Shown here piece by piece: positions 2,319 through 46,839 of a stretch of DNA of 64,000 nt (positions are counted from its first letter, which is position 1; each line of letters begins with the position of its first letter). The notes beneath the pieces are model-generated. The model saw only the letters and a list, made by a program, of their open reading frames with translations, had not been told where the DNA came from and made no database searches. A program made the position numbers and the translations under genes. The DNA is taken from the NCBI GenBank assembly GCA_038882955.1, contig JAVZNC010000001.1, positions 32,001-96,000 of the forward strand, given 5' to 3'. This stretch comes from Candidatus Bathyarchaeia archaeon (GTDB lineage: Archaea > Thermoproteota > Bathyarchaeia > Bathyarchaeales > Bathycorpusculaceae).

Positions 2319-2421
2319 ACAGCAATTTACACCTCCCTTCATTTTTCAATTAAAAGCAAACGCCACATCCCACTCTGTTGGAAAAGTTTATTTCACTGAT
2401 AAGTGTGTTATGAACAAACGT

Positions 2422-2468
2422 TGGCGGATAGGCATCCGCTGGGATGTAACCCTAAAGAAAAGGGGTTG
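2422..2468 (+). promoter_or_regulatory. Putative structured 5' leader of the rpl15e operon (two hairpins)
   Basis: TGGCGGAT-aggc-ATCCGCTG stem-loop followed by AACCCT...GGGGTT stem-loop, upstream of SD AGGAGG and ATG 2502. Confidence 0.45.
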
Positions 2469-2501
2469 AACCATAAACTAGAAAGGAGGAATGCATTGGA
2501 A

Positions 2502-3077
2502 ATGGCGTACAAGTACATTGCAGAGGCTTGGTCAAAACCAGAAAAATCCTTCGTAGACGAGCTTATGCGCCAGAGGCTAATCGAATGGCGCAGGCAACCA
2601 GCCATAACCCGCGTGGAAAAGCCCACAAGACTGGATAGGGCGAGAAGGCTTGGTTACAAGGCGAAACAAGGCTTCATAATAGTCCGTGTGCGCGTTAGAA
2701 GAGGAGGCTTACGGAAACAGCGTCCAAGGTCTGGAAGAAGACCGAAGCGCATGGGTGTCAAAAAGTTCAAGCCCGCCAAAAGTTTGAGGCTTATAGCCGA
2801 AGAACGCGCTGCAAGGAAGTTCCCAAACCTTGAGGTTCTAAACTCGTATTGGGTGGGCGAGGATGGACGCTCAAAATGGTTTGAAGTCATAATGGTGGAT
2901 CCGCATCACCCAGCAATAAAGGCGGATAAGGACGTGAGCTGGATAACCCAGAAACAGCACAAAAGAAGAGTTTTCAGAGGCTTGACAAGCGCAGGCAAGA
3001 AAGTTAGGGGATTAAGGCTAAAGGGAAAAGGCGCGGAAAAGTTTAGACCAAGCAAGAAGTCGGGCATGGGAGAATAG
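2502..3077 (+). CDS. rpl15e: 50S ribosomal protein L15e
   Basis: [47 protein letters not shown]. True start is likely ATG 2502 after AGGAGG. Confidence 0.97.
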
Positions 3078-3082
3078 CACCC

Positions 3083-3316
3083 ATGATAGCTTTAAAGCCA
3101 AAGATCTTTAAAAAAGACGGAAAGCAACGTTTAGGAAAGGGTTTCAGCCAAGAAGAATTGAAGAAGGCTGAGTTAAGCCTGAAAGAAGCCTTGAAGCTTG
3201 GAATTCCAGTAGACCCTAGGCGTAGAACAGCGCATCAAGAAAATGTTGAGGCGATTAAAGGTTTTCTGGAAAGCGTAAAGGAGAAGCCGCGTCGCAAAGC
3301 AAAGTCTAAAAGTTAA
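3083..3316 (+). CDS. rpl13e: 50S ribosomal protein L13e
   Basis: RLGKGFS.EELKKA...LGIPVDPRRRT.HQENVE motif. Confidence 0.9.
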   Translation: MIALKPKIFKKDGKQRLGKGFSQEELKKAELSLKEALKLGIPVDPRRRTAHQENVEAIKGFLESVKEKPRRKAKSKS

Positions 3317-3337: not shown

Positions 3338-3796
3338 GTGATAGCGACTTTGCCTTCTAAAAATCCGATAGGATACATTGACATAAGGGTGTTTGCACAC
3401 GCCACAGAAGACCCAGAAAAAGTTCTCACGGCAGTGCGCAACATGCTCCCACCAGAAACGCTGGATGCGGGCACATTTAAAAAGTCAAATTTAGCTGGGC
3501 ATCATGGAAACCCAATAATACTGTTTGAAGCGCGAGTTAAAGACAAGAGCGCAGTTCAAGCGATTTTTGATAGGATTGCTGCGAGGCTAGGCATTATGGA
3601 TAAGGAGATGCTGAACAGCGAAATTGAAAGCCATTTGGAGAGGGGAAACCTCTATCTTAGGCTTGATAAGCAATCCGCTTATCTGAACGAGGCGCGAATT
3701 GCGAAAGCTGATGCGATTCACTTTAAGATACACTTCAAAAAGGAGAAGCCGGAGGAAGTAGTTGAAATTTGCAGAAAGTTTGGGTTGCTTCCATGA
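3338..3796 (+). CDS. DUF54 family RNA-binding protein (exosome superoperon)
   Basis: HATEDPEKV, GHHGNPI and LYLRLDKQ motifs; typical position between rpl15e and rnp3. Confidence 0.88.
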   Translation: MIATLPSKNPIGYIDIRVFAHATEDPEKVLTAVRNMLPPETLDAGTFKKSNLAGHHGNPIILFEARVKDKSAVQAIFDRIAARLGIMDKEMLNSEIESHLERGNLYLRLDKQSAYLNEARIAKADAIHFKIHFKKEKPEEVVEICRKFGLLP

Positions 3797-4527
3797 AAAA
3801 GGCGTATGCGGACTTGCATTTGCTTCCAAACCCTAGGGATTTAAAACTGGTTTCGCGCATTGTGAGTAAGGCATCTGCACTTGGATACAAGGTTATAGGC
3901 ATATCATTGCCACAAAATTTTGGACAAGAAGAAATTCAAAAATTGAAAAATTTGTGCGCAGAAAACAAAATTGACTTTGTTTCTCGTGTGGATTTGAAGC
4001 TGCGAAGCCCAAAAGAGCTAATCAGAGACCTGAGAAAAATGCGGAGAAAATTCGAGTTAATAGCCGTACTATGCGAGTCAAAAAGCGTTGCAAGACAAGC
4101 AGCGAAAGATAGGCGCGTAGACCTTCTAAACTTTCCGTCAACAGACTTTCGCAAAAGATTCTTTGATAGGGCAGAGGCAGAATTAGCTTCGAACGCGTTG
4201 GCATCGCTAGAAATAGACGTTAAGCCTCTACTCACGCTTGAGGGACTCGCAAGAGTAAGGCTCATACACAACATTAGAAGAGAAGCCGCAACCGCCACCA
4301 AGTACGGTGTTCCCATAGTGATTTCGAGCGGCGTAGCAGACGAACGGCTAATGCGAAAACCGATGGAGCAAGCCTCTTTGGCTTTTCTCTTCGACTTGGA
4401 CGAGGCAGCAGCCTTAAAGGCGGTTTCAAAAAACCCAATAGCAATAGTAAAAAAGAATAGGGAGAAACTTAGTCCAAAGTTTGTTGCGCCTGGAATAAGG
4501 GTCATTCGGAAGGGGAAAGATTGCTGA
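3793..4527 (+). CDS. rnp3: Ribonuclease P protein component 3 (Rpp30)
   Basis: YADLH, ARQAAKDRRVDLL, VPIVISSG, LMRKP; PHP-like TIM barrel; operon context. Confidence 0.9.
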   Translation: MKKAYADLHLLPNPRDLKLVSRIVSKASALGYKVIGISLPQNFGQEEIQKLKNLCAENKIDFVSRVDLKLRSPKELIRDLRKMRRKFELIAVLCESKSVARQAAKDRRVDLLNFPSTDFRKRFFDRAEAELASNALASLEIDVKPLLTLEGLARVRLIHNIRREAATATKYGVPIVISSGVADERLMRKPMEQASLAFLFDLDEAAALKAVSKNPIAIVKKNREKLSPKFVAPGIRVIRKGKDC

Positions 4528-4841
4528 AGAAGGTGAAGAGGCGCTATTTGGCGCTTAAAATAGATTCTACGGAAAAAATCGGCTCAAAAGAGTTTATCGA
4601 CAGCGTCTGGAACGCAGTGTTGAAGCTTTATGGAGAGTATGGCGCAAGCCATACAGGCTTGACGTTAATAAGCTATGATGATGAGCAGCAATTAGCGGTT
4701 ATACGCGTAGCGCATGCTGCCCTAAAAATGGTTAGAGCAGCAATAGCAACAATAACAAGAATAGGCGAGAAACCAGCAACCATCCACATCCTAACAGTTT
4801 CAGGAACAATAAAAACACTAAACAAAAAAATAGGAACATAA
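4521..4841 (+). CDS. rnp2: Ribonuclease P protein component 2 (Pop5/Rpp14)
   Basis: KRRYLAL, LYGEYG and VSGTIK motifs. Confidence 0.9.
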   Translation: MLKKVKRRYLALKIDSTEKIGSKEFIDSVWNAVLKLYGEYGASHTGLTLISYDDEQQLAVIRVAHAALKMVRAAIATITRIGEKPATIHILTVSGTIKTLNKKIGT

Positions 4842-4867
4842 GCTGAATAATAGCTTACTTTTGCTCA

Positions 4868-5030
4868 TCAATTGGAACCTTTCCACCAGTATAAAACTTT
4901 CCTTCCTTGCTTTGAAGAGTCAACAAGGCCTTCTCTCACTAGCTTTTCTAACGCAAGTCTCACTCTCGTGTATTGACTTGGGGCTCCTTTTGGCCAATCT
5001 TATATGCTCTGCTAGGTGTATTATCACCAT
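4868..5030 (-). pseudogene. Degraded winged-helix (ArsR-like) regulator fragment
   Basis: Manual translation gives ...SQYTRVRLALEKLVREGLVDSSKQGRKVLYW*. The upstream ATG (5030, MVIIHLAEHI) is one base out of frame. Confidence 0.4.
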
Positions 5031-5235
5031 ATTATCTCCTATATTATCACTATTTGTTTACTATTAAAAGAGAAATAGAGGTAGCTAATGGGCGGTTTAG
5101 TGAAAGGGGGCTCTAAATAATTCGGAATTAGTGTGGGAATGGGATACTGGAATGGATAAAATGGTGGTTTAGGGTCGGAGCTTGAGCGAACATCTTATAT
5201 TTTGATAATTTAATGCTAATATTTGTGGTTATACT

Positions 5236-5622
5236 GTGGAACTTACCGAGAAAGAAAGGCTAATGCTGGTTGAAAAGAAAGAGGAAATTAGAAGATTAAC
5301 AACTGAAATTTTGGGAATGGCGTCTAATCCAAAAAACGAGTTGGAAATCAAAAAAGGATTTACTAGCATTTTAGCACATTTGAATACTATCGCGTCTTAT
5401 TCTGACTGTCAGAATTACGATTTAGATAGATTAACGTCTGCTATAAACGCTTTATTTATCACCATGCGTCGTGAAGAAAGAGCGAATGTCTGGGTTGTCT
5501 CCCCATTGTATATCGAGGTAACTTGCAATCACATAAATTCCATTAGATTCAATTTCACAAAAAGAGACGTAAAGATACATCTGCCTAAAATAGACATTTC
5601 GATATTCAGAACTAATAAATAG
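5236..5622 (+). CDS. Hypothetical protein (island cargo, helical)
   Basis: 128-aa ORF with a TATA-like element upstream; no recognisable motif. Confidence 0.65.
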   Translation: MELTEKERLMLVEKKEEIRRLTTEILGMASNPKNELEIKKGFTSILAHLNTIASYSDCQNYDLDRLTSAINALFITMRREERANVWVVSPLYIEVTCNHINSIRFNFTKRDVKIHLPKIDISIFRTNK

Positions 5623-5712
5623 GTAGAGCATTAAAATCTTTATTTGTAAATAGCTGATGCTTGTTACGATACGAAAGGTGGGAAACGTAAGAAATTATGA
5701 AAAGTGATAATC

Positions 5713-6117
5713 ATGGAAAAACCGCTAGGTAAAGAAGAACAAAAGGCGTATTTGCATAGTAAAATAGGAGAATCAGTCAATTTTAAGTACCCAGAACCCC
5801 CGTACCTTTTGAAAGGTAAGTTACTGGACAGATATGCAATTTCTTTGGGATATGGAGACGAATGGGTAGATTATTAGATGATTGTAGACATTATTAAGTT
5901 TGAAGGTGAGACTGAGGACTGGCTAAGGATAACTTACTATAGGTACAAGAAGAAAGAAATGAGATGGGTTTTTGCGGGTCAAACAGCATTGGCGATGCCA
6001 ATAAGTGGTTTCCGTGAATTATTCATCAAGGTAATAAAAGAGAAAGAATGGATTAGACCGCTTTTCAAAGAAATCTACAAACAATGTTTAAACGAGTTAA
6101 ATATAGAAAACTTATAG
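5713..6117 (+). pseudogene. Hypothetical protein interrupted by an in-frame TAG (5875-5877)
   Basis: ATG 5713 opens 54 codons (MEKPLGK...EWVDY), then TAG, then continues in the same frame as ORF 5878-6117. Confidence 0.65.
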
Positions 6118-6230
6118 CTGAACCAAAAGAACTAATCAGAATCAGAGAATTGCATAGGCTCTTTTTGAGAACAGAGCAAAAGTTTAAAATTTTATATAGA
6201 AAACTGCCTATTAACTGGATGAGAATTAAA

Positions 6231-6524
6231 ATGAGTAAAGAACTTGAACTTAAACCATTGCTAAAGAAACTAGACGACCTAGCCAATAAAATAGACACGT
6301 TAATCATGGTCACAGCAGTTACACATCAGAGTCAAAAACTTTTAGAAGGCAAATCGCAGAAAGAGCAGATTAAAATTCTTGCTGAAAGAAAGCTTCCGAG
6401 AGACGTAATCGCGTTGATAGTCGGCACCAAACCAGAAGTTGTAAGTGTTAGGTTAAGCGAATTAAAGAGTAAGTCTGGTAAACCAAAGGAAAAACCACAA
6501 AAACAAGTAGAAGAGGCTCAATAA
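6231..6524 (+). CDS. Small coiled-coil plus HTH protein
   Basis: KLDDLANKIDTLI...EQIKILAERKLPRDVIALIVGTKPEVVSVRLSELK (HTH pattern); likely start ATG 6231. Confidence 0.7.
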   Translation: MSKELELKPLLKKLDDLANKIDTLIMVTAVTHQSQKLLEGKSQKEQIKILAERKLPRDVIALIVGTKPEVVSVRLSELKSKSGKPKEKPQKQVEEAQ

Positions 6525-6541
6525 ATAAGAGGATCATTTAA

Positions 6542-6745
6542 ATGAAAACGAAAAAATCCGTTGGAAATAGTGGTTTAAATAAGAAAATTGAAAAGGTAAA
6601 CAAGAAACTGGACATGATAATAGTTATCCTTTTAGCTAAATCTGGTTTTACAAGAAAAGAAGTAGCCGACGTTTTGAAGGTAAGCGAGAAAACCATAGAA
6701 CGAATGCTTCCATTTGAGAAGCTCAAAAAACGGCGTGAAGAATGA
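6542..6745 (+). CDS. Small HTH protein
   Basis: KLDMIIVILLAKSGFTRKEVADVLKVSEKTIERML; ATGA overlap with the next gene. Confidence 0.75.
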   Translation: MKTKKSVGNSGLNKKIEKVNKKLDMIIVILLAKSGFTRKEVADVLKVSEKTIERMLPFEKLKKRREE

Positions 6746-7449
6746 AAAAGCCTGAATTAGACCCACGGATTGTTCAAAAAATAAAAAGAAAGGGAAAAAT
6801 TTCTGAAAAAACAATAAGACCAGCTATTTCTAAAATTAGAGGAGACAATCCCTCACTTACACTGAATGCTGCAGCAGAAATATTCGCTAAGAAACATGGT
6901 TTCAGCGTTTCAAGATATCTAAATGACAAGGATAGGGACGCCTTAAAGAGTCTGCAAATAGAAAAAATAAAAGTGCCAGTAGGCAAACCAAAATCAAGAA
7001 AGAAAATTGCAATAATCGCCAATTATGACACTACTGACCCATTACTAAAAGCTCATATTGATGAAATAAACAAAACATATACCTACGGATGTTACACAGC
7101 TACTTTTATTCTCTGTAGGAAAGTTTTAGAAAATTTGATAGTTCATCATATTCTTAGAAAAAAATATCCAGAAAACTCAGAACAGCATAGAAGTAAATAT
7201 TTTGATTTTAATAGAAACAGAAATTTAGATTTCAATAAATTATTGACAAATTTGAGGGAATCATCTAAGGACTTCGGACCAGAGAAAAGTCTTGTTGAAA
7301 GAATCTGTCAGTTGGCGGAGAGATTCAAAGAAGAAGCAAATGAAATGACGCACTCTTTGTATCATATAGCAACAAAGAAAGAGATAGATGAAATACGATT
7401 TCAGTATATACTGGATTTAATTAAAAAACTTGAAAGGACTTTGTCCTAA
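6742..7449 (+). CDS. Helical N-terminal domain plus DUF4145/HEPN-like C-terminal domain protein
   Basis: YTATFILCRKVLENLI and KEEANEMTH resemble the DUF4145 A...+R..+E and R..GN..AH motifs. Confidence 0.6.
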   Translation: MKKPELDPRIVQKIKRKGKISEKTIRPAISKIRGDNPSLTLNAAAEIFAKKHGFSVSRYLNDKDRDALKSLQIEKIKVPVGKPKSRKKIAIIANYDTTDPLLKAHIDEINKTYTYGCYTATFILCRKVLENLIVHHILRKKYPENSEQHRSKYFDFNRNRNLDFNKLLTNLRESSKDFGPEKSLVERICQLAERFKEEANEMTHSLYHIATKKEIDEIRFQYILDLIKKLERTLS

Positions 7450-7537
7450 ATTTTCTGAGACTTATTTTTATATTATCATCTTAGGCTTTCGTAGGCAGTA
7501 TCCCCATTCAGTTTTAGTTAGTAGTGCATTTGTATAG

Positions 7538-8500
7538 CTATTTACGTTTACGGAATAGCTTAGCACCATCTATATCAGTTACATAGTCAAAGCCTTGCTC
7601 TAGCAGAGTCTTAGCCTCATCAAGGGTTCTAGCCACAGCAACATGGTACTCTTCAGATGGAAAGGCTACTAGGTGAGTGTAACGGAGAGTGGCTCTAAGG
7701 TCTCTATGACCCATTATAGATTTAACATATAGCAAATCTTTAGTTTTATAATATTCTAAGGAAGCCTTAAGGTGTCTAAGGTCGTAGAGGCGTATAGACT
7801 TAATGGAAGGGTCACCGAGCTTATTAGCAACCTTGTTACGTACACGTCTAAAGGTTTCAGATAGGGATTCAGACCTTATAGGAAAGAGCCTATCATTTAA
7901 AGATAGTTTTTTAATGGCTACGTAGGCTTTTAGCATAGCTAGTGTTTGAGGTGTAAGTTTAAGGGTTCTACCAGAGCAGTGTTTAGCACTTGTAACAGTC
8001 ACCATACCAGACTCTAAATCTACATCTTTAAGCCTTAACCATGTAAGCTCTATAGGTCTAAGACCTAGGTCTCTAATTATACTAAAGGCTAACGCATACC
8101 TTTTAGAAGCATTAGATATTATCAGATTAACCTTTTCCATAGTAGGTAGCTTTGGCAGTCTATCATAGCGTTTATAGAAGGGTTTAGACCATGCTAGACC
8201 GTTAGCCTTGCAATAGAGGTCGTAGGCTTCCACTAGAGTCTCTTTAAAAGCCATGCTACAACCTTTTAAAGCTATAAAGCCCTTTACAGTCTCTGGATTG
8301 GATAGGTCACAGTTTCTAGATAGGTGTCTAAGCCTTTTAGCAGTAGCCTTGATATAGCTTTCAGAGTAGGCGTTCTTTTTCATATACCATAGAGTATTAA
8401 AAAGTTTATCAGTTGGGGATGCTGTTATAGCTTTGGGGGATGATGTTGCCGTCCCAGACTGATTTATGCGGATGAGGAACTCATGACGGACAGACCCCAA
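7538..8500 (-). CDS. Tyrosine recombinase/integrase (start uncertain; ATG 8383 or further upstream)
   Basis: Catalytic set GLRPIEL (R), SAKH (K), YDLRH (xxR), MGH (H) and LRYTHL (Y). Confidence 0.92.
   Translation of the reverse strand: MGSVRHEFLIRINQSGTATSSPKAITASPTDKLFNTLWYMKKNAYSESYIKATAKRLRHLSRNCDLSNPETVKGFIALKGCSMAFKETLVEAYDLYCKANGLAWSKPFYKRYDRLPKLPTMEKVNLIISNASKRYALAFSIIRDLGLRPIELTWLRLKDVDLESGMVTVTSAKHCSGRTLKLTPQTLAMLKAYVAIKKLSLNDRLFPIRSESLSETFRRVRNKVANKLGDPSIKSIRLYDLRHLKASLEYYKTKDLLYVKSIMGHRDLRATLRYTHLVAFPSEEYHVAVARTLDEAKTLLEQGFDYVTDIDGAKLFRKRK
8399..8411 (+). promoter_or_regulatory. Putative BRE/TATA promoter of the C/D sRNA, inside the integrase reading frame
   Basis: AAAAAGTTTATCA lies about 25 nt upstream of the sRNA 5' stem. 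Confidence 0.45.
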
Positions 8501-8501
8501 A
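8432..8501 (+). ncRNA. C/D-box methylation guide sRNA (predicted 23S Gm2251 and Um2593, E. coli numbering)
   Basis: Terminal stem TTTGGGG/CCCCAAA; C box ATGATGT; guide TGCCGTCCCAGA; D' CTGA; C' GGATGA; guide GGAACTCATGACGGA; D CAGA. Both guides pair with conserved 23S PTC sequences recalled from memory. Confidence 0.85.
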
Positions 8502-8521
8502 CAAACGCCCTTTATTACAAA

Positions 8522-9250
8522 CTACAAGCGAAAACGTTCTTGTAACTTCTTTTTGCGCTTAAGCCCAAAAGCCAATGCCAAAACCAACCCTGCAACAAAA
8601 CCGCCTATGTGTGCAAAGTAGGCTACGCCTCCAGAAAGGTCAAAGTACACGTAAAACCATTGTAGCAGGAACCATATGCCTAGGAAAATGAAAGCTGGAA
8701 CTGGCAGGATCGCATAGATAAACAGCGTTAAAATTATTGCTTTTGGGTAAAGTATGAAGTAGGCGCCTAAAACGCCTGATATGGCTCCAGAAGCCCCAAC
8801 AACACCGTCAGCCAAACTCGAAGTTATGGGCAAACCCACAAGCTGATAAAGCAAAGGTGCATACAACGTTACAAGAATGTGGGTGAAATCCGCGGCTAAC
8901 CCGCAGATAAGATAGAAGATTAGGTATCCTGCATGTCCAAAAACGTCTTCTACATTATCGCCGAAAACGAAGAGGAAAAGCATGTTTCCAAAAAGGTGAA
9001 ACCAGCTGGCATGCATAAACATCGAAGTAAACAATGTATATAGGCGTTCACCGTGGAGAATTTCGTTTGGCACCATCACAAAAGCGCCGCTTTGGCTTTC
9101 TGTTCCAGCCATGTAAACCGCGATTTTCTCGTCCAAAACCCCTATGCTTGAAAGCCAAAAAACAACAAAAATTGCTATGTTCAAAATTATTAGTAGGCGG
9201 TTTACGTGCGGCGTTGTTTTAGACCTATTAACGTCTCTAATGGGAAACAA
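8522..9250 (-). CDS. Rhomboid family intramembrane serine protease
   Basis: FMHASWFHLFGNM, GASGAISG (Ser) and AHIGGF (His). Confidence 0.95.
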   Translation of the reverse strand: MFPIRDVNRSKTTPHVNRLLIILNIAIFVVFWLSSIGVLDEKIAVYMAGTESQSGAFVMVPNEILHGERLYTLFTSMFMHASWFHLFGNMLFLFVFGDNVEDVFGHAGYLIFYLICGLAADFTHILVTLYAPLLYQLVGLPITSSLADGVVGASGAISGVLGAYFILYPKAIILTLFIYAILPVPAFIFLGIWFLLQWFYVYFDLSGGVAYFAHIGGFVAGLVLALAFGLKRKKKLQERFRL

Positions 9251-9314
9251 GCGAAACTCACTGACTGAAAGGTAGACGCCAAAAGGCTATTTAATCCTTT
9301 AACCAGTCACGGGC

Positions 9315-9689
9315 TCAGTAAGCCAAACACTCAATCATCCTTTCGCAAGTTAAACACTCGTCTGGAATAGGCGTGTTCTTTGGACGCTTCCGTAAATACC
9401 CAAGAAAATGCTTACAACCAGCAGCACTCGCATGCTCACCAACCTTTTCAGTCCTCTCAACCTTTTCGACAATTGCTCGGTTCTCTTCTCTCTCCTCGCC
9501 ACGTTTACGCTCTTTAACGTCAACCCTTGAAAGACAACGCGGACAAGCATAATAAACATGAACACACCCACCAGAAGAATCCGTCGCCAAAAGAGGCCTC
9601 TGAAAAGTTTCATGACACCCACTGCAGCGATAACTACCCAAACCCAAATCTTCATAGCCAACACGAATCGCGCTTAAACTCTTTTCCAT
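9315..9689 (-). CDS. Zinc-finger hypothetical protein
   Basis: CSGC...CPRC plus C-terminal CKH.LGYL...ECLTC..MIEC. Confidence 0.7.
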   Translation of the reverse strand: MEKSLSAIRVGYEDLGLGSYRCSGCHETFQRPLLATDSSGGCVHVYYACPRCLSRVDVKERKRGEEREENRAIVEKVERTEKVGEHASAAGCKHFLGYLRKRPKNTPIPDECLTCERMIECLAY

Positions 9690-9788: not shown

Positions 9789-9863
9789 TGGGCCCGGCCG
9801 GATTTGAACCGGCGACCAACAGGTTATGAGCCTGTCGCTCTAACCTAGCTGAGCTACGGGCCC
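9789..9863 (-). tRNA. tRNA-Ile2 (CAU anticodon, agmatidine-type)
   Basis: Reverse complement GGGCCCGTAGCTCAG...CAGG-CT-CAT-AA-CCTG...GGTTCAAATCC.GCCGGGCCCA. The GGGCCCG acceptor stem is Ile-type, not Met-type. Confidence 0.9.
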
Positions 9864-46721: not shown

Positions 46722-46839
46722 GCGGCGGTAGCCAAGCCAGGTCAAAGGCGGAGGACTCAAGATCGGCGTTTAAGGGCTAGACCCCCTATGAGCCATCCTC
46801 TCCCGTAGGGGTTCGCCGGTTCAAATCCGGCCCGCCGCA
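46722..46839 (+). tRNA. tRNA-Leu(CAA) with a 33-nt intron at 37/38 (46762-46794)
   Basis: GCGGCGG/CCGCCGC acceptor, GAGGA-CT-CAA-G^A-TCCTC, long variable arm; BHB helix CTCA/TGAG with AGA and CCA bulges. Confidence 0.95.

Follow-up and report, generated by a model that had tools for sequence, protein, structure and literature searches.

A probable integrative element remnant at the 5' end of a C/D box sRNA gene in Bathyarchaeia

Genomic islands of bacteria occur at tmRNA genes. Bacterial integrases at the 5' end of dusA have been described (PMC4482086). For archaeal tyrosine integrases, the types described in PMC8371274 include the SSV1-type, with the signature R..KxxR..Y and the 3' part of tRNA genes as target, and the pNOB8-type, with the signature R..YxxR..Y and genes that stay intact on integration. 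The same source describes the pTN3-like 'suicidal' integrases of Thermococcales, in which the 5' half of a tRNA gene serves as attB and the integrase promoter drives the rebuilt tRNA; PF16795 is given there as a domain of the known suicidal families SSV, pTN3 and pT26-2.

The locus described here lies in a window of 64,000 nucleotides, the whole stretch of DNA analysed, from a Candidatus Bathyarchaeia archaeon (genome G000). We consider it likely, with a probability of about 0.8, that the locus is the immobilised remnant of a small Bathyarchaeia integrative element whose integrase clade recombines at the 5' end of a C/D box sRNA gene; as parts of this reading we infer an integrase gene split by integration and an sRNA promoter carried by the element.

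The island and the empty site in relatives

The island, its borders and its cargo comprise the following features (coordinates in the window, strand in parentheses).

4521..4841 (+): rnp2, RNase P subunit Pop5/Rpp14 (PF01900, E 2.4e-22), preceded by Rpp30
4842..4854 (no strand): remnant of the native rnp2-sRNA spacer; same-genus homology stops at ATAGC
4855..8433 (no strand): integrated element remnant, ∼3.58 kb, AT-rich, without attL; absent from 12 empty-site relatives
4866..5030 (-): frameshifted remnant of a winged-helix-like gene in two frames (...HLAEHIRLAK... and ...SQYTRVRLALEKLVREGLVDSSKQGRKVLYWWKG), at the island's left end
5236..6524 (+): four small ORFs (5236-5622, 5704-5877, 5878-6117, 6231-6524) without family matches
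6542..6745 (+): small helix-turn-helix protein, repressor- or excisionase-like (phrog_4583 transcriptional repressor, E 1.3e-5)
6742..7449 (+): 235-aa ORF with only a weak match to a DNA-binding protein (phrog_1305, E 7.3e-4)
8522..9250 (-): rhomboid protease gene (PF01694, E 3.5e-30), the right-hand neighbour of the sRNA, as in relatives

The AT-rich island of the original prediction was recovered in a GC profile, with values of 0.31–0.40 in 400-nt windows from 4801 to 8200 for an island of approximately 4855-8433, versus 0.42–0.48 on both flanks. As had been claimed, rnp2 and a tyrosine integrase antisense across a C/D-box-like RNA are all present, rnp2 being the final gene of the row L15e-L13e-PF01877-Rpp30-Pop5. 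The border of the native spacer was placed by eye, by aligning the window with the attL of G001 and the empty sites of G003 and G002. The winged-helix likeness of the remnant at 4866..5030 is likewise a by-eye judgement. Searches of Pfam, PHROG and NCBIfam left the four small ORFs without a match at the thresholds applied, and other elements at the sRNA site had no homologues of them; the matches of the 6542..6745 protein to HTH_23, excisionase and sigma region 4 were weak, all under the Pfam cut-offs.

The sRNA DNA was conserved in 29 of the 41 related genomes searched. Pop5 is followed directly by the sRNA in 12 of these 29, and at the sRNA 5' end lies a full-length homologous integrase in five and an integrase remnant in three; these occupancy classes thus cover 20 of the 29 genomes. 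The empty site, predicted as rnp2 directly before the sRNA, was therefore seen in 12 Bathyarchaeia relatives, where it consists of rnp2, ∼45 nt and the sRNA, and it is spread over four families of the order. These comparisons show an ancestral arrangement with the sRNA ∼45 nt downstream of rnp2. The predicted position of the element, at the 5' end of a C/D box sRNA, is borne out by the eight relatives with a homologous integrase or remnant there. In many further genomes and contigs, too, this sRNA has a homologous integrase beside it, and the proposed tally of non-coding RNAs at the 5' ends of homologous integrases returned this sRNA repeatedly, with tRNA and RNase P RNA for other clades.

Alternatively, the island might be no site-specific insertion at all, and instead either a chimera of the assembly or ancestral DNA that the relatives have lost. 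The source assembly has 31 contigs and 6% contamination, and attL is missing in this genome, as such an origin would allow. However, contigs of run X1, possibly from the source sample but assembled separately, are identical to the window over 4622-5574 and 5551-8460 and span the left junction. Given also the occurrence of the empty site in four families, the attL/attR repeats at related occupied sites (see below) and the foreign composition of the island, we regard this explanation as exceedingly improbable.

The sRNA, the attachment core and the ATAGCTT repeat

The features at the right border of the island include the following.

8413..8422 (+): left arm of the core, directly repeated (TTGGGGATGC) within the P arm, a possible extra integrase binding site
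8434..8457 (+): att core TGGGGGATGATGTTGCCGTCCCAG (= TGGGGGATGATGnnGCCGTCCCAG), attR copy, covering the sRNA 5' stem, the C box and 11 of the 12 nt of the D' guide
8435..8498 (+): C/D box sRNA (GGGGG, C box AUGAUGU, guide UGCCGUCCCAGA, D' box CUGA, loop, C' box AUGAGGA, guide ACUCAUGACGGA, D box CAGA, CCCC)

The sRNA has the layout of an archaeal C/D box RNA, with AUGAUGU, 12 nt, CUGA, 9 nt, AUGAGGA, 12 nt and CAGA between GGGG/CCCC flanks that form a terminal stem (boxes and 12-nt spacers read by eye). The D box consensus is CUGA; here the D box reads CAGA. All sRNA homologues aligned retain CAGACCCC. In Rfam the sRNA scored under every gathering threshold, the best family being sR60 (RF01309) at 18.7 bits versus 50 (E 0.55). 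The guides were scanned for pairing against the LSU rRNA of G011. For the D' guide, GCUGGGGCGGCA (approximately position 2373) offers pairing at 11 of 12 positions, one of them G-U, a result equalled by 11 of 300 shuffled guides, while the best LSU site of the D guide was equalled by 91 of 300 shuffles. An exact 10-mer target of the guides was absent in five genomes.

Six related elements carry a second copy of the same 24–31 nt, which correspond to the sRNA 5' end, at their far end. The partial second copy of the sRNA is located on another contig in G001, ∼8.9 kb off in G009, in a tandem array in G021, and at 2.4 kb, 3.6 kb and 5.7 kb in G024, L056 and L058, respectively (L056 is the same element as L124 and was counted once among the six). 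This clade of integrases thus recombines at a core of 24–31 bp that exactly matches the start of a conserved C/D box sRNA gene. Integration leaves a truncated sRNA behind the native promoter on the rnp2 side (attL) and rebuilds the full sRNA beside the 5' end of the integrase (attR); the native promoter is retained in the attL of G001.

Direct repeats of this kind were found in the six related elements, and in this genome attR only; because those elements have attL and attR, the copy here is classed as a degraded integrative element. No second copy of the core was present in the window or the assembly with up to 5 mismatches allowed in 24. Here attR is intact, and attL, the native promoter and some of the left end of the element have been deleted. 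With the native promoter and a core copy gone, the element is locked in place, and the sole sRNA copy in this genome is preceded by element DNA. The original prediction that excision at the core would join rnp2 to the sRNA does not hold for this copy, as a second core is absent and the element cannot excise at any core. A scan of viral_contigs for the core gave 0 matches, neither a circular contig nor a free attP form was found, and none of 70 metagenome loci had an integrase-adjacent core without the sRNA. Motifs resembling TGGGGGATG or CTGGGAYG occur in other P arms at the place equivalent to the repeat at 8413..8422.

In its exact form, the original model was of an intact, excisable element with ATAGCTT as crossover core, whose excision fuses rnp2 to the sRNA. 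The 7-mer is found at both island ends (4850-4856 and 8427-8433), in each case with GCTG upstream as reported (by 4 nt and 2 nt, respectively), and the catalytic residues of the integrase are intact. The right copy, however, does not overlap the sRNA stem as had been stated; it ends 1 nt ahead of the true core. The left copy belongs to the native spacer common to island-free genomes; three genomes of the same genus as G000 (G001, G002 and G003) have AATAGC at the corresponding position. Nor is the 7-mer rarer than chance would have it: the window holds 19 copies versus 11.1 ± 3.4 expected (2 of 100 shuffles reach 19), and 1602 of 20000 random pairs of 40-nt segments from the window share a 7-mer. 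The caution that it recurs inside the integrase was well founded, with three copies there. Related elements duplicate the first 24–31 nt of the sRNA and not ATAGCTT, and the P arms of other elements lack ATAGCTT at that place. We therefore take ATAGCTT to be a chance 7-mer and the model built on it to be very improbable.

The integrase, its reading frame and a candidate sRNA promoter

Two features overlap at the right end of the island.

7538..8433 (-): tyrosine integrase, with the catalytic body beginning at the ATG at 8383, preceded by 17 more in-frame codons (KAITASPTDKLFNTLWY) that extend to the att core
8397..8411 (+): A/T-rich BRE/TATA-like box ATTAAAAAGTTTATC, coinciding with integrase codons DKLFN, a candidate sRNA promoter

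The minus-strand frame is open from 7538 to 8500, antisense across the sRNA. Its product matches PF00589 (54.5 bits versus a cut-off of 27.1, E 1.5e-14), the sole Pfam family at E ≤ 0.01, as well as the integrase family phrog_216 (E 2.7e-24); PF16795 (Phage_integr_3) was not found, and the score against the XerA equivalog NF040815 was 75.3 bits versus a cut-off of 220. Alignment to XerA (5hxy) located all catalytic residues (R109, K134, Y200-D-L-R203, H226 and Y235), with R, K, R, H and Y retained in 42–44 of 44 homologues. The box reads Y-D-L-R, so that the signature is the R..YxxR..Y of the pNOB8-type (Y200xxR203) and not the R..KxxR..Y of the SSV1-type. This genome has 7 matches to the gene, which is multi-copy and of patchy occurrence. 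In a tree of 44 homologues, all 16 sRNA-adjacent integrases form one split (support 100/99) with two tRNA-type integrases as sisters. The wider family mostly adjoins tRNA 3' ends, and a sister group adjoins RNase P RNA.

Probably, the integrase ORF crossed the att core in the free element, in a 'suicidal'-like layout. Just 5' of the ATG, homologues of all three types (sRNA, tRNA and RNase P RNA) share a conserved motif [KR]-[ILV]-F-x-[TV]-L-W-[EY], whose W is present in 34 of 44, and the motif is kept at the amino-acid level despite synonymous codon changes across the family. At the position of the ATG, at least 10 of the 44 homologues have a non-start codon. No ATG, GTG or TTG lies between core and motif in this genome, and no start codon lies there in G001 or L025 either. 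In four of five elements the far arm supplies an in-frame ATG 8–16 codons before the core, and leaders of that kind occur in 3 of 34 longer database proteins inspected. The codons DKLFN are thus true integrase coding sequence, as had been proposed. The integrase, which had been described as intact, is probably not intact as a gene, having an N-terminal motif without a start codon before the core. In the free element, the integrase ORF would start in the other arm and then read through the core; integration would consequently sever a short leader peptide and the integrase promoter.

Integration at the same site by a non-split integrase, starting at the ATG at 8383 or in the spacer, with attP only adjoining the 5' end of the gene and the open frame incidental, is an explanation we consider unlikely. 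The ATG is present in 14 of 16 sRNA-clade rows, gene callers mostly start there and give 281 aa for most relatives, and start codons occur inside the spacer in some homologues (P0011, P0021, P0113). The antisense strand of the core is stop-free in all three frames, and PF00589 together with YxxR resembles the non-split pNOB8 type as described in PMC8371274. Among 20 sites, the spacer from core to ATG was 0 mod 3 in 11 (including L057, with a mis-mapped position-1 codon), 2 mod 3 in 7 and 1 mod 3 in 2 (L028 and L059, both mis-mapped in the same way), so the core is read in different frames across elements. L047 has a stop 4 codons upstream and a truncated integrase. Against this explanation, a start at 8383 would give a 281-aa protein without the conserved upstream motif, and the non-start codons, the start-free interval from core to motif and the far-arm leaders described above favour an ORF that crossed the core.

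The A/T-rich box, antisense in codons D-K-L-F and ∼25 nt upstream of the sRNA, may now serve as the sRNA promoter. That it does so is plausible on sequence grounds: 14 of the 16 P arms of sRNA type have an A/T-rich 8-mer 20–27 nt upstream of the core, at a spacing equal to that of the native promoters. In a control, however, similar 8-mers were found upstream of position 1 in 22 of 28 homologues of non-sRNA type, so the box may merely reflect the K-I-F codons. It is conceivable, if somewhat doubtful, that the element supplies no promoter, the box being a by-product of the K-L-F codons and the sRNA being matured from longer transcripts, as some Pyrobaculum sRNAs are suspected of being co-transcribed with mRNAs (10.1101/121921). 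In favour of this, the cargo genes of the island are oriented towards the sRNA, but ∼900 nt of antisense integrase separate the last plus-strand ORF from it. The constant spacing of the box also speaks for an element-borne promoter, as does the retention of the integrase 5' segment: in all three decayed elements, the surviving part of the integrase is its 5' end beside the sRNA.

Comparison with known systems

Within the same Bathyarchaeia family, the sister clades (42–55% identity) share the upstream motif and the open frame into the target gene. Their targets, co-oriented with the integrase, are the 3' ends of tRNA genes (7, ARAGORN) or of RNase P RNA (5 loci, RF00373, 194–213 bits); the sRNA clade alone in the family faces the 5' end of its target. 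Tentatively, and with less confidence than the reading of the locus itself, we suggest a second, sequence-unrelated lineage of self-splitting ('suicidal'-like) integrases in Bathyarchaeia, with a pNOB8-type active site. One of its clades would have exchanged tRNA 3' ends for the 5' end of a conserved gene for a predicted rRNA-methylation guide, and a second would have moved to RNase P RNA. Within the sRNA clade, the coding sequence of the integrase would double as an antisense promoter, and the only guide copy of the host would then depend on element DNA, stabilising decayed elements, so that the 5' stub of the integrase survives.

The element resembles pNOB8-type integrases in its R..YxxR..Y signature and Pfam Phage_integrase domain, and differs from them in the conserved N-terminal motif that has no start codon on the integrated side here. 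With the SSV1-type (Fuselloviridae) it shares an archaeal tyrosine recombinase, an attP that would lie in its own ORF and an integrated copy that reads into the target RNA gene; it differs in YxxR, a much shorter leader and the sRNA 5' end as target. As in bacterial tmRNA and dusA islands, an integrase clade is specialised on one conserved non-tRNA target and, as in those that target a 5' end (dusA), the element must restore the start of the gene; those islands, however, are bacterial, with other integrase lineages and protein-coding or tmRNA targets. As in pTN3, the 5' part of an RNA gene serves as attB, the att site would lie in the integrase ORF so that integration splits the gene, and the rebuilt RNA gene would exchange its native promoter for an element-borne one, here a candidate. 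Unlike the tRNA target of pTN3, the target here is a C/D box sRNA antisense to the integrase, for which reason any promoter must sit antisense in the integrase coding sequence; the host belongs to Bathyarchaeia, a match to PF16795 is absent, and only ∼8–31 leader codons would be cut off.

The island and its target RNA

The island (~4855-8433 of the window) lies between a ribosome/RNase P gene row and a C/D box sRNA, and has a GC content of 0.31–0.40 as compared to 0.42–0.48 in both flanks.

Features of the locus (window coordinates)
2403-3077, plus strand: L15e, ribosome/RNase P gene row
3083-3316, plus strand: L13e, same gene row
3338-3796, plus strand: PF01877 protein, same gene row
3769-4527, plus strand: Rpp30, same gene row
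4521-4841, plus strand: Pop5 (rnp2), same gene row
4866-5030, minus strand: frameshifted remnant, winged-helix-like as judged by eye
6542-6745, plus strand: helix-turn-helix protein (phrog_4583, E 1.3e-5)
Within the island, adjoining the sRNA, minus strand: tyrosine recombinase (integrase; PF00589, 54.5 bits)
8435-8498, plus strand: C/D-box RNA of 64 nt, recognized by its box layout
8522-9250, minus strand: rhomboid gene, next after the sRNA
9789-9863: tRNA-Met, beyond the rhomboid gene

All six plus-strand ORFs of the island are small and, the helix-turn-helix ORF aside, have weak family matches or none. A search of the window for direct repeats around the island returned only short families at chance level. 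Two further RNA features were recorded. The eL15-Euryarchaeota leader (RF03144) was matched above its gathering score (45.2 bits) at 2424-2477, at the start of the L15e gene, in a Bathyarchaeia genome outside the group that names the family. A 118-nt Rfam tRNA at 46722-46839 (45 bits), absent from the ARAGORN output, probably contains an intron.

The sRNA reads, in order, GGGGG, AUGAUGU, 12 nt, CUGA, 9 nt, AUGAGGA, 12 nt, CAGA and CCCC. Its DNA is conserved in 29 of 41 related genomes, and no Rfam family matched it at gathering score (best sR60, 18.7 bits vs. 50). Exact 10-mer guide complements, sought in five genomes, were confined to the sRNA gene itself, with none in LSU rRNA. In the LSU rRNA of one relative (G011), 11 of the 12 positions of the D' guide pair (one as G-U) with GCUGGGGCGGCA at about position 2373, a weak match that 11 of 300 shuffled guides equalled; the best site of the D guide in the same rRNA is at chance level (equalled by 91 of 300 shuffles). 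The GCUGGGGCGGCA site may resemble the P-loop near E. coli G2251 (Gm2251); placing the candidate site on E. coli 23S numbering gave no match.

Empty sites, occupied sites and the attachment core

The context of the sRNA was examined in all 29 genomes that hold it. The site is empty in 12 of these (G002, G003, G008, G010, G011, G014, G017, G022, G025, G030, G035 and G036), where Pop5 is followed by a spacer of ~45–70 nt, the sRNA and, in seven, the rhomboid gene further on; the empty arrangement anticipated by the original prediction, rnp2 directly followed by the sRNA, is thus present among relatives. Since the 12 genomes cover four families of the order, we regard Pop5-spacer-sRNA as ancestral. 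A full-length integrase homologue (45–100% identity), placed head to head with the sRNA (5' end to 5' end), is found in five genomes (G000, the genome under study, G001, G004, G009 and G021), and an integrase N-terminal stub alone in three (40 aa in G006, 41 aa in G020 and 84 aa in G024). The other nine were left unclassified on account of short contigs or different synteny. In one of these nine (G012:C150 1195-4664, locus L144), the rhomboid gene and sRNA are as usual, but the Rpp30-Pop5 row lies on the other strand 1.6 kb away, as a result of an inversion or rearrangement that ends, on one side, at the 5' side of the sRNA.

Partial extra copies of the sRNA, comprising its first 24–31 nt, were found at the far end of elements. 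These duplicated bases are the attachment core, TGGGGGATGATGnnGCCGTCCCAG (8434-8457), which comprises the 5' stem, C box and 11 of the 12 nt of the D' guide. Homologous integrases and core copies at this position bear out the proposal of an integrative element at the 5' end of a C/D sRNA gene.

Far-end core copies in related elements (attR, full sRNA beside the integrase; attL, far-end copy; G, genomes; L, extracted loci)
G001: attL immediately downstream of Pop5 and the native promoter, on a separate contig
G009: ~8.9 kb from attR, at a contig end
G024: 2.4 kb
L056 (same element as L124): 3.6 kb
L058: 5.7 kb
G021 (L015, G021:C5 1-6225): tandem array of full sRNA, integrase, 3.0-kb element, middle core, 2.9 kb, Pop5

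The upstream side of the middle core in G021, 3.0 kb from attR, resembles a P arm (the element DNA on the integrase side of the core), and at sites of this kind a full-length but chimeric integrase gene would be re-formed. The 2.9-kb segment between this core and Pop5 holds a DNA methylase (PF01555). The left arm of the core recurs as a direct repeat (TGGGGGATG- or CTGGGAYG-like) ~22 nt upstream of the core in the 15 of 16 sRNA-type P arms that align (the spacer of L137 is long and different) and at 8413-8422 in the window; this repeat is possibly an additional integrase binding site. With respect to free or circular elements, viral contigs gave no core matches, metagenome and genome-collection scans gave integrated forms only, and the contig of locus L054, which ends at the core, has no terminal overlap. 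The elements at this site share their target and not their cargo. The six island ORFs all lack homologues in the other elements, whose genes are unrelated to the island's and include no recognizable replication or virion genes. One of them (L058 7842-11342, minus strand) encodes a protein of 1166 aa in which AAA_16, TPR repeats and a KaiC-like ATPase domain make up a STAND-like architecture; it is possibly defence or signalling cargo.

The heptamer ATAGCTT, previously put forward as the crossover core, does occur at 4850-4856 and 8427-8433. However, the window holds 19 copies (11.1 expected), three of them within the integrase, and 8.0% of random pairs of its 40-nt stretches have a 7-mer in common. 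AATAGC is found at an equal distance past the Pop5 stop in three other genomes of the genus, at the empty sites of G003 and G002 and at the occupied site (attL) of G001, and the P arms of related elements lack ATAGCTT. Given its chance-level frequency, a left copy that is native DNA and its absence from related P arms, the repeat carries no weight and was rejected.

While attR is intact in G000, homology to the native spacer ends at ATAGC (4854), and both the native promoter (AATTCATTTAAGG...GTAAACTT in G001 and G003) and a core copy are absent from the left end. No second core was found in the window at ≤3 mismatches, or in the 1.54-Mb assembly at ≤5 mismatches in 24. Contigs from X1, a sequencing run that may represent the source sample, are identical to the window over 4622-5574 and 5551-8460. 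The left junction cannot be put down to misassembly of G000 alone, since the first of these separately assembled contigs spans it without a difference. The simplest account is a deletion that took attL, the native promoter and part of the element, and the copy is therefore locked in place; the frameshifted gene at the left end fits such decay.

Contigs of four DNA runs were compared with the window. Joints from 4827-4833 to 8431, a candidate signal of excision, were seen in two X1 contigs and two from a second run, X2. Their shorter sides measure 23–24 nt at 85% likeness, and joints with such short sides often stem from other organisms; we read them instead as empty-site relatives. Over 4300-9400 in X1 and X2, the sRNA (bin 8404-8574) and the flanking host genes have a summed contig depth several times that of the island, and the source-sample contigs break within the sRNA (8460/8472), which fits several related strains that have the sRNA and lack the island.

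Integrase targets, gene start and sRNA promoter

Of 301 genomes of the order, 234 carry homologues of the integrase (E ≤ 1e-20), often more than one per genome. The ncRNAs abutting homologous integrases, a comparison proposed at the outset, were sorted for the 30 best loci: ten adjoin this sRNA (L023-L030, L047 and L052), five the 3' end of the RNase P RNA gene, co-oriented with the integrase (RF00373, 194–213 bits), and seven a tRNA gene (ARAGORN), co-oriented in all except L046 (tRNA-Pro), where the tRNA is on the other strand. Three more carry a T-arm-like motif, three have a longer N-terminal coding region and two are cut by contig ends. In L038, L039, L043, L048 and L049 the integrase lies 60–90 nt downstream of the RNase P RNA 3' end in the same orientation (e.g. 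RNase P RNA at 1137-1439 and integrase from 1501 in L039), which suggests that this RNA is another non-tRNA integration target in Bathyarchaeia.

A maximum-likelihood tree was built from 44 integrases of the best, metagenome and genome-collection loci, after removal of L040, L047, L056, L057 and L126 (<240 aa or 5'-cut). A branch with support 100/99 separates the 16 sRNA-adjacent integrases from the rest, two tRNA-type integrases being their sister, and the five RNase P RNA integrases group together (89/80); target labels came partly from a motif regular expression, and the 'tRNA' label of L041 is probably wrong. Because the sRNA and RNase P RNA types group in the tree, target choice is a property of clades, and the sRNA type seems to have arisen by a single switch away from tRNA genes. 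G000 has six further integrase paralogues at 31–39% identity (C12:10499-11332, C23:2229-3065, C20:4850-5686, C4:118137-118988, C3:478-1317 and C13:7894-8736); their open frames extend further upstream, with Cys-rich, zinc-ribbon-like segments in two cases, and tRNAs are absent within 300 nt. It also has two C-terminal integrase fragments, one beside tRNA-Glu (C5:5-238).

The integrase had been described as intact. Its catalytic body is complete (R109, K134, Y200xxR203, H226 and Y235), with R, K, R, H and Y kept in 42–44 of 44 homologues, but, on sequence comparison, the ancestral start was probably not the ATG at 8383. In frame and immediately upstream of it is a motif, [KR]-[ILV]-F-x-[TV]-L-W-[EY], that is common to sRNA-, tRNA- and RNase P RNA-type homologues with synonymous codon differences, retains its W in 34 of 44, and recurs in the longer G000 paralogues behind ~100–200 residues. 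The 'ATG' position itself is CTN, TTA or ATA in at least 10 of the 44. At 8384-8396, and in relatives, the W two codons ahead of the ATG, with the DNA CCA(N)AG, is kept even alongside a conserved ATG, which might be an internal restart site in the integrated half of the gene.

As had been claimed, the integrase frame runs antisense into the sRNA, and it stays open through it to 8500; the 17 codons from core to ATG (KAITASPTDKLFNTLWY) include no ATG, GTG or TTG. The equivalent frame of tRNA-type relatives runs through the tRNA T arm. The far arm (element DNA adjoining attL) extends the frame, with an ATG 8–16 codons before the core in four of five cases (G009, G021, G024 and L058), the exception being L056/L124, whose integrase is broken. 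Three of the 34 database proteins longer than 281 aa among the 120 best matches (P0073, P0078 and P0082) have 12–31 leader residues unlike the sRNA antisense, followed by core-encoded GTAxSxP. Against an ORF through the core, the core-to-ATG spacer is 0 mod 3 in 11 of 20 sites, 2 mod 3 in seven and 1 mod 3 in two, so that the core is translated differently between elements; some homologues have starts within the spacer; and free attP was absent among the scanned viral contigs, metagenomes and genome collections. Weighing these, we think it fairly likely that the ORF of the free element crosses the core and that integration severs a short leader and promoter; the 281-aa integrase gene calls may be truncated.

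Because the target is the sRNA 5' end, the rebuilt sRNA is always preceded by element DNA, and the native promoter is wholly gone in G000. The box proposed as its replacement, ATTAAAAAGTTTATC, is indeed located at 8397-8411, in codons D-K-L-F-N, ~25 nt upstream of the sRNA. Fourteen of 16 sRNA-type P arms (exceptions L026 and L137) have an 8-mer with at least seven A/T ending 20–27 nt before the core, a spacing equal to that of native promoters (GAAAGCTTATTTG type). The case is weakened by a control: of 28 homologues not directed at the sRNA, 22 also carry an 8-mer of this kind within the 51 nt preceding position 1, and K-[ILV]-F codons are A/T-rich regardless. Indirectly in favour of a promoter role, the surviving part in all three decayed elements is the integrase 5' stub beside the sRNA. 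No RNA run turned up for 7400-9300. Alternatively, the sRNA may be matured out of longer transcripts, an origin that the consulted portion of a Pyrobaculum sRNA study suspects for some sRNAs (10.1101/121921). We give even odds to the A/T-rich box in the integrase codons being the sRNA promoter.

Comparison with known systems

The G000 island is a degraded member of an undescribed, clade-wide variant of archaeal site-specific integration. The original observation was real apart from the heptamer, and its interpretation stands in substance, if not in its details. Two structured non-tRNA RNA genes, the C/D sRNA and, as suggested here, RNase P RNA, are added as recurrent archaeal att sites, and target choice varies by clade within one abundant family of Bathyarchaeia integrases. 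An element that inserts at the 5' end of a host gene has to replace that gene's promoter, and in the sRNA clade the replacement would need to lie antisense inside the integrase coding sequence. These elements offer a compact system in which to examine dual-use sequence, integrase specificity switching and the possible fixation of dead elements by host dependence. Integrase stubs beside the sRNA are markers of old insertion sites; the interest is mainly for specialists in archaeal mobile elements.

According to the portion consulted of a review (PMC8371274), archaeal integrases target tRNA genes, a few protein-coding genes and intergenic sites; its section 19 lists only protein-coding genes and intergenic regions as non-tRNA targets, and the same portion, supplementary tables aside, mentions neither sRNA, RNase P nor non-coding. 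Searches of openly readable articles, main text only, turned up no paper describing C/D sRNA or RNase P RNA genes as integration sites. A Bathyarchaeia virus survey mentions integrases and, in the portion consulted, no att sites (PMC10848311). The 'suicidal' integrases, as the review portion presents them, are similar in the proposed cut of leader and promoter by integration; by sequence the G000 integrase belongs to none of these families, lacking a PF16795 match, and its YxxR signature is, per the same portion, of pNOB8 type rather than KxxR. [quoted passage not shown] The sRNA clade differs in targeting a C/D box sRNA rather than a tRNA 5' half, in a target that lies antisense to the integrase gene, and in integrase lineage and host. 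Clade-wide integration at an sRNA site is previously undescribed, yet not categorically new.
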